Shown: piece after piece, positions 47,742-54,455 of the stretch
How the letters are laid out: every line of letters starts with the position of its first letter
Numbering within the stretch: position 1 is the stretch's first letter
Translations under genes and position numbers: made by a program
Notes under the pieces: generated by a model
Databases searched by the model: none
Seen by the model: the letters and a program-made list of their open reading frames with translations, nothing else
What the model was told of the DNA's origin: nothing
From: Escherichia coli
GTDB lineage: Bacteria > Pseudomonadota > Gammaproteobacteria > Enterobacterales > Enterobacteriaceae
DNA: 64,000 nt
Direction: 5' to 3' (one strand)
Assembly (NCBI RefSeq): GCF_003334785.1
Contig: NZ_QOWV01000008.1

Positions 47742-48555
47742 TGACCAAATTCTCAGTGGTTGTCGCAGGCGGTGGAAGCACCTTTACGCCAGGCATCGTG
47801 TTGATGCTCCTGGCGAATCAGGACCGTTTCCCGCTTCGTGCACTGAAATTTTATGATAACGATGGTGCGCGGCAGGAAGTGATTGCCGAAGCCTGTAAAG
47901 TCATCCTTAAAGAAAAAGCGCCGGACATTGCGTTTAGTTACACCACCGATCCTGAAGTGGCATTCAGCGACGTTGATTTTGTCATGGCGCACATCCGCGT
48001 CGGCAAATACCCGATGCGCGAACTGGATGAAAAAATCCCGCTGCGCCACGGCGTTGTTGGTCAGGAAACTTGCGGACCCGGCGGAATAGCGTACGGCATG
48101 CGTTCCATTGGCGGCGTCCTGGAACTGGTGGATTATATGGAAAAATATTCACCAAATGCCTGGATGCTCAACTACTCCAACCCGGCAGCCATTGTCGCAG
48201 AAGCCACGCGTCGTCTGCGCCCGAATGCGAAAATCCTCAACATCTGTGACATGCCAATCGGTATTGAAAGCCGGATGGCGCAAATTGTTGGGCTGCAAGA
48301 TCGCAAACAGATGCGCGTGCGCTACTACGGCCTGAACCACTGGTGGTCGGCGATATCCCGCAGTTTCAGAAAGGGTTAATGAGTCAGCAAGTGGCGGTGG
48401 AAAAACTGGTCGTGGACGCCTGGGAACAGCGTTCATATCAGCACCTGTGGCAGGCGATTACGTTGTCGAAAACGGTACCGAGCGCCTCGGTCGCCAAAGC
48501 TATTCTGGATGAGTTGCTGGAGGCCAACAAAGCGTACTGGCCAGAGTTACGTTAA
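47741..48555 (+). pseudogene. glvG: GH4 6-phospho-glucosidase remnant glvG (frameshifted and C-terminally truncated)
   Basis: 212-aa N-terminal ORF ([18 protein letters not shown]) followed by a 70-aa out-of-frame fragment; intact GH4 enzymes are about 440 aa. Confidence 0.8.
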
Positions 48556-49445
48556 TTGTGTGGACTGGCATCCGTTGGGTGCTGGTCCGTATTCTTTAGC
48601 ACGGCTGACGGCGCATAACCAAATTTATGTTTAAAGGCTTTGCTGAAATGAAAGGAGTCGAAGAAGTTGAGCGTATCAGCGACTTCGCCAACCGAGTTTC
48701 CTTGTTGCTTTAATAGCGATAGCGCCAGATCCAGACGCGCATCGAGGTAATATTCTTTCGGCGTCTTGCCGGTATAGCGTAAAAACAGACGACGCAACCA
48801 GGCTTCGCTACAGGGGATCGTGGCAGCCATATCAGCTACGCTCCAGCGTTGTTGCAGACTGGCATGTAAAGTGGCAATTAATTTTTCAATTTGCCGCCGT
48901 TGTGGATCTTTTTTACCATCTGCGTACATAAGACAAATCCACTGATAAATAATTTTCGTCAGAAAAGCGACTGCCAGATTATTTTTTATTGCTTCTGGTG
49001 AAGTTATTAACTCAGCAACTTCGGTGAGTTCCTGATTATAAATTTCGCCATTATAAATAACGCTTTGCTGACCAACGGGAATATCCATCATACTGGTGGG
49101 GGTAAATTCCATCCAGTACTGTTCCCAGACTAAACCTTCACAGTGATAAGAGTGAATATCCATTGGCTTTAAGAATATAATACAGTTGCCATGCAGTGTT
49201 ATTTGTTCGCCATTCTTTAAAAGAATTTTCCCACATCCTTGTACGGTATACACCGCAACCCATGAGTTGGCGATAAGCGGTTTCTTCTTGTCCCGCGGCC
49301 AGATCACCCGGTAATGCTCGTCGGCGTAGGTATGCCAGAGCGAGATCAGAGAAATTCCGCTGGAGATCACATTTTCGTTAATCAATAAGGGAATATTGTA
49401 CGGAGTTTCGTTTTTTACATCTGAACTTTGCAATTTTCCATTCAT
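48552..49445 (-). CDS. yidL: AraC-family transcriptional regulator YidL
   Basis: 297 aa from MNGKLQ with ggaggg SD; C-terminal AraC HTH. Confidence 0.9.
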
Positions 49446-49611
49446 TTTAATATCCCTCCGGCGAATTATGCTCACAACCTGAACTTAACAGAAAACAATC
49501 CGTTCAGGGATACGACGTTTGTATTTTAAGAATCTGACTGCCTGACCCGACGCATTTTACCTCTCCCTATATTCATGCGTCCGGGACATAAACATAAATA
49601 AGGGCTATGAG

Positions 49612-53261: not shown

Positions 53262-53609
53262 ATGAAAATTTCCCGCCTCGGAGAAGCGCCTGATTACCGC
53301 TTCTCGCTGGCTAATGAGCGTACTTTTCTGGCGTGGATCCGTACTGCACTAGGATTTCTGGCGGCGGGGGTTGGGCTTGATCAACTTGCGCCAGATTTCG
53401 CCACGCCCGTCATTCGCGAACTGCTGGCGTTGTTGTTGTGTCTGTTTTCCGGCGGGTTAGCGATGTATGGCTACTTGCGCTGGTTACGCAATGAAAAAGC
53501 GATGCGTCTGAAAGAGGACCTGCCCTACACCAACAGCTTATTAATCATTAGCTTAATATTGATGGTCGTGGCGGTGATCGTTATGGGACTGGTGTTGTAT
53601 GCCGGATAG
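53262..53609 (+). CDS. yidH: Inner membrane protein YidH (DUF202)
   Basis: 115-aa ORF. Confidence 0.9.
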   Translation: MKISRLGEAPDYRFSLANERTFLAWIRTALGFLAAGVGLDQLAPDFATPVIRELLALLLCLFSGGLAMYGYLRWLRNEKAMRLKEDLPYTNSLLIISLILMVVAVIVMGLVLYAG

Positions 53610-53961
53610 CCGCAAAGCCAGACGCATTGCCGACCCAGGACTGCAGCCGGAGCGCACATCACTGGCGTGGTTTCGTACCATGCTGGGCTACGGCGCGTTG
53701 ATGGCGTTGGCTATCAAACACAACTGGCACCAGGCGGGCATGTTATTCTGGATTTCGATTGGCATTCTCGCCATCGTGGCGCTGATCCTCTGGCACTACA
53801 CCCGTAATCGCAATTTAATGGATGTCACGAATAGCGATTTTTCCCAATTTCACGTAGTCCGTGACAAATTTTTGATCTCCCTCGCGGTGTTATCTCTCGC
53901 AATACTGTTTGCTGTAACGCATATACATCAACTTATCGTATTTATTGAGAGAGTCGCATGA
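53599..53961 (+). CDS. yidG: Inner membrane protein YidG
   Basis: 120-aa ORF; overlaps yidH by 11 nt. Confidence 0.9.
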   Translation: MPDSRKARRIADPGLQPERTSLAWFRTMLGYGALMALAIKHNWHQAGMLFWISIGILAIVALILWHYTRNRNLMDVTNSDFSQFHVVRDKFLISLAVLSLAILFAVTHIHQLIVFIERVA

Positions 53962-54455
53962 CAGGAAGTCAGGTCATTGATGCTGAAGAGGACAGGCATA
54001 AACTGGTTGTAGAGTACAAGGATGCTCTGCAACCTGCCGATTTTTATCACAATTTCAAACAGCGGGGCATCCGCTCCGTACAGCTCATTCCCTATCTTGA
54101 ATTTGATGACCGGGGCGATCTGACGGCCGCTTCGGTGACAGCAGAGCTGTGGGGGAAATTTTTAATTGCCCTGTTCGAGTGTTGGGTGCGGGCAGATATC
54201 AGTCGTATCTCGATTGAGCTTTTTGACGCCACCTTACAAAAATGGTGTGGCAGCGAAAACCCGCAACCGCGCTGTGACTGCCAGGCGTGCGACTGGCATC
54301 GCCTGTGCCCGCACGCTCGGCAGGAGACGCCAGACAGCGTGCTTTGTGCGGGCTATCAGGCGTTTTATTCTTACTCCGCACCGCATATGCGGGTGATGCG
54401 TGATCTGATAAAGCAGCATCGTTCTCCCATGGAGCTGATGACGATGCTGCGGTGA
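53958..54455 (+). CDS. yidF: YidF, Cys-rich SPASM-like remnant of an anaerobic sulfatase-maturase-type protein
   Basis: 165-aa ORF with CDCQACDWHRLCPH cluster; no CxxxCxxC radical-SAM motif. Confidence 0.8.
   Translation: MTGSQVIDAEEDRHKLVVEYKDALQPADFYHNFKQRGIRSVQLIPYLEFDDRGDLTAASVTAELWGKFLIALFECWVRADISRISIELFDATLQKWCGSENPQPRCDCQACDWHRLCPHARQETPDSVLCAGYQAFYSYSAPHMRVMRDLIKQHRSPMELMTMLR

Follow-up and report, generated by a model that had tools for sequence, protein, structure and literature searches.

The yid locus and its genes

The window analysed here is a stretch of 64,000 nucleotides of Escherichia coli (contig NZ_QOWV01000008.1 of assembly GCF_003334785.1), and its positions 48552-54455 carry the seven genes yidL, yidK, yidJ, yidI, yidH, yidG and yidF. 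The last of these is the main subject, as its product is probably an internally deleted orthologue of a sulfatase-maturating enzyme of the anaerobic type (anSME) which has lost its catalytic function and is kept by selection as a pseudoenzyme with a non-catalytic role. With gene calls taken from the list of open reading frames (ORFs) and from the Prokaryotic Genome Annotation Pipeline (PGAP) annotation of an identical record, all seven genes were found at the coordinates at which the initial annotation of this DNA had placed them:

yidL, 48552-49445, minus strand: AraC-family transcriptional regulator, divergent from yidK; the PGAP start gives 297 aa
yidK, 49612-51564, plus strand: Na+/solute symporter with an altered 3' end
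yidJ remnant, 51267-52658, plus strand: cytoplasmic type I sulfatase
yidI, 52705-53154, minus strand: small membrane protein
yidH, 53262-53609, plus strand: DUF202 membrane protein, first gene of the yidH-yidG-yidF unit
yidG, 53599-53961, plus strand: second DUF202 membrane protein
yidF, 53958-54455, plus strand: 165 aa, anSME derivative without the radical-SAM core (SAM, S-adenosylmethionine)
emrD, minus strand: stop 7 nt past yidF (54453-54465), convergent with yidF

Over its whole length and without a break, the locus has the sequence of E. coli FORC 064 (NZ_CP022664.1; 100% identity), and matches to it exist in 5,422 of the 5,426 complete E. coli genomes, 5,103 of which cover 80% or more of the locus. 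That it combines an AraC regulator, a symporter and a sulfatase of the Cys type, as initially proposed, is borne out by matches to the AraC helix-turn-helix models, NF007790 and PF00884, respectively. Residues ~190-297 of YidL match the AraC, RhaS, RhaR and GbdR models with E values from 7e-15 to 1e-9, with all scores below the equivalog cut-offs and thus indicative of family membership only; PGAP likewise names the protein an AraC family regulator, and its ORF extends open to a GTG at 49475. YidK scores 856 bits against the solute:sodium symporter model NF007790 (cut-off 401) with residues 1-526 aligned to positions 1-527 of the 527 in the profile. The intact YidJ of a K-12-like strain matches the Pfam family Sulfatase (PF00884) at E 1e-72 over residues 4-341 and in addition carries SGSH_C, the C-terminal domain of N-sulphoglucosamine sulphohydrolase.

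The DUF202 family (PF02656) is matched by YidH at E 6e-19 and by YidG at E 3e-11, and the stop codon of yidG overlaps the start codon of yidF (ATGA), which indicates that the two genes are translationally coupled. No NCBIfam match was found for YidI, and a PADLOC scan of YidI, YidH, YidG and YidF for membership in defence systems returned nothing. Among the genomes compared, yidI is a patchy insert present only in Escherichia and in some Citrobacter and Salmonella loci, and some E. coli lineages lack it as well (matches H21-H28, with 89-90% coverage). At the other end of the unit, the 7 nt between the stops of yidF and emrD leave no room for a terminator, so that the two transcripts must overlap; in other genera, mostly, roughly 1.5-7.5 kb of other genes separate the yidF homologue from emrD.

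YidF and its full-length orthologues

YidF has cysteines at positions 75, 97, 106, 108, 111, 117 and 130. Its length, the Cys run CDCQACDWHRLCPH, which occupies residues 106-119, and the lack of a CxxxCxxC motif in a regular-expression search agree with the initial annotation. Against the anSME model TIGR03942 the protein scores 75.1 bits (E 5.4e-21, cut-off 349.45) in two stretches, the best of which covers positions 160-245 of the 363 in the profile, so that homology is shown but membership in the equivalog is not. The Pfam scan of YidF gave only noise at E <= 10, with no match to Radical_SAM (PF04055) or SPASM (PF13186). In turn, the best matches of an AlphaFold2 (AF2) model of YidF in the Protein Data Bank (PDB) are the four anSMEcpe entries 4K36-4K39 (TMq 0.63), and the model contains helices at residues 125-152 and 159-164 at a predicted local distance difference test score (pLDDT) above 90. 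The similarity to maturases noted at the outset thus proved to be homology to the C-terminal half of anSMEs, given both the TIGR03942 match (E 5e-21) and the anSMEcpe entries as best PDB matches.

Available names for the protein point in the same direction, as PGAP calls it 'radical SAM protein' and EcoCyc lists it as a putative YidJ-maturating enzyme. In the open-access literature, no paper was found that links yidF to sulfatases or discusses the nature of YidF, most matches to 'yidF' being unrelated strings or misspellings of ydiF. Overexpression of YidF raises D-serine resistance according to a gene table in PMC12363166, the primary source of which was not traced.

A scan with one genome per species yielded 80 loci, all from Enterobacteriaceae, in which gene order was established by tblastn with eight E. 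coli proteins. The common order is yidL on the minus strand, yidK, yidJ, sometimes yidI, then yidH, yidG, the yidF homologue and, later, emrD; yidH-yidG-yidF is common to the 80 loci, many of which also have yidL(-)-yidK-yidJ upstream. As the initial annotation had anticipated for a synteny comparison, 35 of these loci carry a full-length anSME directly after yidG in a yidLKJ-yidHG context, where the gene overlapping the yidG stop codes for a protein of 350-381 aa with an intact CX3CX2C motif at residue 15. They include Citrobacter werkmanii, C. braakii, C. amalonaticus and C. sedlakii as well as Kluyvera, Kosakonia, Trabulsiella, Pseudocitrobacter, Pluralibacter, Atlantibacter, Yokenella and one Leclercia species. 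These full-length proteins begin with MTGCQVMAKPASSRCNLxCRYCFY, YidF with MTGSQV. The orthologue from C. werkmanii (370 aa) matches anSMEcpe 4K36 at E 9e-69 and contains both Radical_SAM (PF04055, residues 12-173, E 6e-19) and SPASM (residues 254-312). Protein searches moreover revealed relatives of YidF of 164-178 aa in Escherichia species, Citrobacter, Klebsiella, Leclercia, Superficieibacter and Silvania, and intermediate forms of 192-363 aa with the same N- and C-termini as YidF. On these sequence comparisons, the view of YidF as a reduced orthologue of the full-length anSME is strongly supported.

All of the 80 loci except L082, which is a 1.1-kb fragment, contain yidH and yidG with overlapping stop and start (79 loci), and identity of yidH is 79-99% in all loci but one (Shimwellia, L049, 66%). 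This DUF202 pair is a closer companion of the anSME/YidF gene than the sulfatase gene is, and many yidHG-yidF loci are without yidLKJ, e.g., in Kosakonia, the C. freundii group and K. pneumoniae. With respect to the sulfatase, 21 of the 32 loci that have a full-length anSME also have yidJ, versus nine of 31 loci with a short form (Fisher's exact test, p = 0.005, uncorrected for phylogeny), which speaks for a functional coupling of maturase and sulfatase. The conservation of regulator, symporter, cytoplasmic sulfatase and maturase as a unit is supported by these comparisons.

When residues are numbered as in the C. werkmanii orthologue, which serves here as the ancestral form, YidF consists of residues 1-9, 152-245, 305-318 and 323-370, and the blocks 10-151 (the radical-SAM core), 246-304 and 319-322 are missing in frame. 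An N-terminal truncation as the origin of YidF was considered and rejected, because the start overlapping yidG, the first residues (6-9, or about nine by the block map) and the C-terminus are all ancestral. The initial annotation had taken YidF for a remnant of the SPASM end of a maturase. Of this, the derivation from an anSME stands, but the protein is not truncated at its N-terminus, and most of the Pfam SPASM domain has been lost internally; indeed, as the deleted block 246-304 is almost exactly the region defined as SPASM by Pfam, the lack of a Pfam SPASM match is explained.

In anSMEcpe, the auxiliary cluster Aux I is liganded by C255, C261, C276 and C330, and Aux II by C317, C320, C326 and C348 (PMC5715301). 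Transfer of these ligands via the alignment of the full-length orthologue to 4K36 indicates that in YidF the Aux I ligands are all lost, three of them with the 246-304 block and the fourth (ancestral residue 322) in the 319-322 gap. The equivalents of the Aux II ligands are encoded at the following position:

54279-54347, plus strand: codons for YidF C108, C111, C117 and C130, equivalents of anSMEcpe Aux II C317, C320, C326 and C348

None of 75 sequences deviates at C108, C111 or C130, and conservation of C117 is at least 90%. All short forms share the gap at about 246-300, and the gap in the core varies between lineages:

core gap 10-151: Escherichia, the Citrobacter freundii group and Salmonella arizonae/diarizonae
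core gaps 10-45 and 54-146: Klebsiella
core gap 25-150, CX3CX2C still there: one C. amalonaticus strain (L020)
core gap 23-113: locus L022
no core gap, degenerate motif: Shimwellia (315 aa)

By its distribution over the aligned sequences, this pattern suggests that Aux I may have been deleted first, and that the then useless core may have been trimmed independently later on. Two near-full-length forms are caught early in inactivation. In Kosakonia oryziphila (L042, 7527-8579) CX3CX2C is kept and a 23-residue in-frame gap lies in the Aux I segment (257-279), and in Enterobacteriaceae RIT691 (L045, 7503-8585) there is a gap of 14 residues (261-274) together with a degenerate motif, CNLNSRCFY.

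The series of lengths also bears on the idea that YidF might belong to an independent family of small Cys-rich proteins which merely resemble the ends of anSMEs. The initial annotation would have yielded to such a complete family of its own, and to that extent it is partly contradicted, as the short form, at 153-192 aa, has been conserved as an undisrupted ORF across many genera; Pfam, moreover, detects no SPASM domain in YidF. However, the short gene occupies the same genomic slot as the full-length one, overlapping the yidG stop, and the proteins start alike (MTGC/SQV) and end in C-termini that hardly differ. Intermediates exist at 192, 220, 249, 315, 350 and 360 aa, some of them with a degenerate or retained CX3CX2C, and in Leclercia the short and full-length forms are nearest relatives. 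An origin as a stand-alone family is refuted in practice by this nested series of intermediates and is hardly credible any longer.

Selection on yidF and a deletion in the sulfatase gene

The ratio of non-synonymous to synonymous substitution rates (dN/dS, or omega) was estimated by pairwise Nei-Gojobori comparisons of K-12-like E. coli with five other Escherichia lineages. For yidF it is 0.12-0.30, where about 1 would be expected under neutrality. The corresponding range for yidL, yidK, yidJ, yidH, yidG and emrD is 0.00-0.12, mostly 0.01-0.06; within it, values of 0.02-0.05 for yidL, yidK and yidJ (yidL 0.03; yidJ 0.03-0.05) signify strong purifying selection, and yidH has 0.01-0.04. The dN/dS of yidI is relatively high at 0.12-0.22. 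In other genera, dN/dS amounts to 0.06-0.38 for the short forms and to 0.05-0.33, mostly 0.07-0.15, for the full-length ones. By region, in four of the five Escherichia pairs, residues 1-96 of YidF have a dN/dS of ~0.1 and the Cys region 97-131 one of ~0.2 with a high dN, and the most constrained part is the C-terminal end:

54351-54452, plus strand: C-terminal 34 codons of yidF, GYQAFYSYSAPHMRVMRDLIKQHRSPMELMTMLR

In the same four pairs, these last 34 codons have a dN/dS of 0-0.06, with 9-10 synonymous versus 0-3 non-synonymous changes, the tail of the fifth and closest pair (L062) having changed too little to add information. A constraint at the nucleotide level, such as an overlapping RNA or the 3' end of emrD, was rejected as the cause because synonymous divergence is normal, with a dS in the tail of 0.57-0.68 versus 0.62-0.65 upstream (again four of the five pairs). 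A comparison of mean pairwise identities between short and full-length forms yields 0.45 versus 0.72 for the barrel remnant and 0.33 versus 0.64 for the Cys region, and 0.73 versus 0.72 for the C-terminal 34 residues. In addition, the ~40 short forms have at least a dozen distinct deletion boundaries and, apart from frameshifts or stops in single strains, keep the reading frame open between the start and the stop of the ancestral gene.

These data can be set against the possibility that YidF is a neutral pseudogene fragment, that is, a dead and decaying maturase the ORF of which has survived by chance. Such decay would be in line with the loss of all catalytic motifs, with a rate of evolution several times that of the neighbouring genes and an omega above that of the full-length forms, with the high variability of the Cys region (dN 0.25 within Escherichia), with broken alleles in single strains, and with the many low-count, frameshift-like variants of ~145 aa among the assemblies. 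However, omega is 0.12-0.30 and not about 1, the C-terminal 34 codons are as conserved in the short forms as in the working enzymes, the independent indels, at least a dozen in number, each have a length divisible by three, there is little or no variation in the Aux II cysteines among the 75 sequences, and the intact 165-aa form dominates the E. coli clusters with thousands of members. Neutral decay is therefore already disfavoured and has to be regarded as unlikely, and yidF is, as judged from substitution patterns, maintained by purifying selection.

A number of observations nevertheless weigh against the preferred reading of YidF as a selectively kept pseudoenzyme. YidF is only 81-86% identical across Escherichia, versus 91-100% for yidL, yidK, yidJ, yidH, yidG and emrD, and constraint on yidF is weaker than on these neighbouring genes. 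Broken copies exist in E. albertii NBRC 107761 (frameshift) and Leclercia NCTC13032 (internal stop), frameshifts or stops affecting the yidF homologue in single strains at the loci L016, L066, L037, L058 and L079, so that loss is evidently tolerated. The dN/dS values stem from pairwise and not from tree-based comparisons, and dS is saturated in some of the pairs. In Citrobacter, short forms have a Tyr at the position equivalent to C117. The neighbour-joining tree groups the short forms of Leclercia and Silvania with the full-length Leclercia gene, and hence the shared SPASM gap may have arisen twice or may have been moved by recombination, which makes the order of events uncertain. Finally, the confidence of the AF2 model (pLDDT 84, predicted TM-score 0.82, built from a 75-sequence alignment) is in part inherited from the full-length homologues in the alignment and does not by itself prove that the half-barrel folds autonomously.

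The initial annotation had described the unit as undergoing decay, in part on the grounds of the truncated yidJ. The first of these claims holds for the catalytic core of the maturase, which is lost, but does not extend to a gene with the dN/dS of yidF or to yidL, yidK and yidJ under strong purifying selection. The second is real in the window, where pairwise alignment with the K-12-like strain W5-6 revealed that 159 bp are missing. In K-12-like strains, this block is flanked by two copies of the 8-bp direct repeat CTGGCGGC, of which one is left, a pattern characteristic of a deletion between repeats. The relevant features are:

51267-51274, plus strand: deletion junction, the single surviving copy of the repeat
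51318-51332, plus strand: CTPAR codons of yidJ (formylglycine motif C-x-P-x-R), DNA retained

From yidK the deletion takes the stop together with the 15 codons before it, and from yidJ the start codon and the first 35 codons. Native YidK sequence ends at residue 556 (about 51279), from where the gene reads 94 codons out of frame into yidJ, resulting in a protein of 650 aa versus 571 aa in K-12-like strains. For yidJ, the N-terminal segment VMTDTQ is among the losses, no usable start precedes the ATG at 51414, and tblastn of YidJ against the window recovers residues 34-497 only. As the CTPAR codons lie between an in-frame TGA (51261-51263) and 51414, where the first ATG, GTG or TTG of this frame is found, they belong to no normally startable ORF; the C-x-P-x-R motif of type I sulfatases is thus inside the translated protein in K-12-like strains but not in the window. 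PGAP accordingly flags yidK as 'missing C-terminus' and yidJ as 'missing N-terminus'.

Among the 5,426 complete E. coli genomes, 45 have the junction, those of ML35 and NCTC9100 being two of them. The truncation of yidJ is therefore a separate and recent, lineage-specific event and not a general feature of the E. coli locus. The sulfatase is dead in the lineage with the 159-bp deletion, yet it is not decaying across the species, since yidL, yidK and yidJ are under strong purifying selection elsewhere in Escherichia.

Independent lesions within the locus were seen in the E. coli matches H24, H25, H27 and H29, among them a yidJ annotated as two pieces, an IS3 transposase inside the yidK/yidJ match, and an IS200/IS605 tnpA-tnpB pair beside yidF with most of the locus lost. 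Upstream of yidL, the gene at 47741-48555, which follows a gene of the phosphotransferase system (glvBC-like, 46125-47741), is annotated as 'hypothetical protein, frameshifted' in FORC 064 and in the K-12-like strain, and consists here of two ORFs, 47741-48379 and 48343-48555. It resembles the known pseudogene of the 6-phospho-alpha-glucosidase glvG, in which case it would be a second decayed sugar-utilisation gene adjoining the yid locus. Just downstream of emrD, at 55680-56780, the annotation of the identical record places two small genes, ysdE and the type I toxin gene tisB, and also ivbL, the leader of ilvB.

A non-catalytic relative of sulfatase maturases

Taken literally, the available names imply that YidF is a working maturase which converts the cysteine of the CTPAR motif in YidJ to formylglycine. 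The gene does sit in the maturase position beside a Cys-type sulfatase, and with the low omega of yidJ in Escherichia (0.03-0.05) something must activate YidJ. However, YidF has no CX3CX2C, the region aligned to Pfam Radical_SAM (12-173 in the orthologue) is deleted, the Aux I ligands are lost, and its 75 bits against TIGR03942 compare with a cut-off of 349. Radical-SAM chemistry requires the SAM-binding cluster, as is established for the superfamily and summarised in PMC5715301. Since core, CX3CX2C and SAM-binding region are lost, YidF cannot be a radical-SAM maturase, and its activity as such is highly improbable.

According to the preferred reading of an internally deleted anSME retained as a pseudoenzyme, the ancestral unit of the Enterobacteriaceae would have served the use of a sulfated and probably sugar-like substrate, the class of which is deduced from the genes. 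YidK would import the sulfated compound under the control of YidL, and YidJ, which has no signal peptide in its sequence and would hence be cytoplasmic, would desulfate it there after the yidHG-linked anSME had converted its catalytic cysteine to formylglycine. A hint that the substrate may be a sulfated amino sugar comes from the SGSH_C domain in YidJ. In the lineage leading to Escherichia, as well as in many other genera, the anSME lost its catalytic parts by in-frame internal deletions, whereas the start coupled to yidG, a portion of the barrel, all four Aux II cysteines and the helices at the C-terminus were kept. As the Escherichia maturase is catalytically dead while YidJ is conserved, YidJ must be matured by another system. 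In the strain lineage of the window, the separate 159-bp deletion between the CTGGCGGC repeats has killed the sulfatase.

What remains of the enzyme is most likely a small protein with one predicted [4Fe-4S] cluster that acts as partner or scaffold for YidH/YidG or for YidJ, and we infer that its non-catalytic role is carried mainly by the C-terminal module. A more specific proposal, which we put forward tentatively as one possibility, is that YidF and its ~40 short relatives constitute a pseudoenzyme family with a role of its own, for which the Aux II-type site of four cysteines and the C-terminal module of 34 residues are kept. If so, this module may dock to the DUF202 proteins YidH/YidG, to which the gene is coupled in every genus.

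With respect to known systems, YidF resembles the anSMEs (AtsB, AslB and anSMEcpe; radical SAM/SPASM, TIGR03942) by homology, by genomic position, by part of the barrel, by the Aux II ligand set C-x2-C-x5-C...C and by the C-terminal helices. It differs from them in that it lacks CX3CX2C, the SAM-binding core and Aux I, has less than half the length and cannot perform radical-SAM chemistry. Twitch-domain enzymes such as BtrN and MoaA also have a shortened SPASM domain with one auxiliary cluster, in which the half on the Aux I side is kept and the CX2CX5CX3C motif is absent (PMC5715301). Both are reduced modules of the SPASM type with a single predicted auxiliary [4Fe-4S] cluster, but the twitch enzymes keep the Aux I side and the radical-SAM core, whereas YidF keeps the cysteines of the Aux II side and has no core.

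The same gene logic, with a type I sulfatase beside a gene of the anSME type, is found in the enterobacterial pairs aslA-aslB and ydeN-ydeM, which Benjdia and colleagues reportedly described for E. coli in 2007 together with an unidentified 'third' maturation system. In contrast to these pairs, the yid sulfatase is cytoplasmic and accompanied by a symporter and an AraC regulator, and the yid maturase is set apart from it by two coupled DUF202 genes and is a non-catalytic remnant in E. coli. With pseudoenzymes, among which YidF is placed here on the grounds of its sequence, it shares the loss of catalytic motifs together with measurable purifying selection and a conserved non-catalytic segment. 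YidF is thus a non-catalytic variant of a known family and not a new kind of system. The gene cluster, the assignment of the sulfatase and the similarity of YidF to anSMEs are known from existing annotation. What appears to be new is that YidF is an internally deleted orthologue of an enzyme that is full-length in related genera, that it falls short in every test of catalytic anSME membership, and that its gene is under purifying selection with an unrelaxed C-terminal module.

Several consequences follow for the biology of the organism and of the family. The PGAP label 'radical SAM protein' is misleading for a protein without a radical-SAM core, and the strongly selected yidJ of E. coli cannot rely on the neighbouring 'maturase', which bears on the question of which system makes formylglycine. 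With the 159-bp deletion, 45 of the 5,426 complete genomes, that of ML35 among them, represent naturally occurring yidJ nulls in which yidK is altered as well, and the short and intermediate forms provide a natural in-frame series, from 381 down to 153 aa, for asking which part of an anSME is useful without catalysis. The locus also links the DUF202 pair YidH/YidG to sulfatase maturation, and if the C-terminal module does have a role of its own, the full-length enzymes may be tied to YidHG as well, which would provide a first functional handle on DUF202 proteins.

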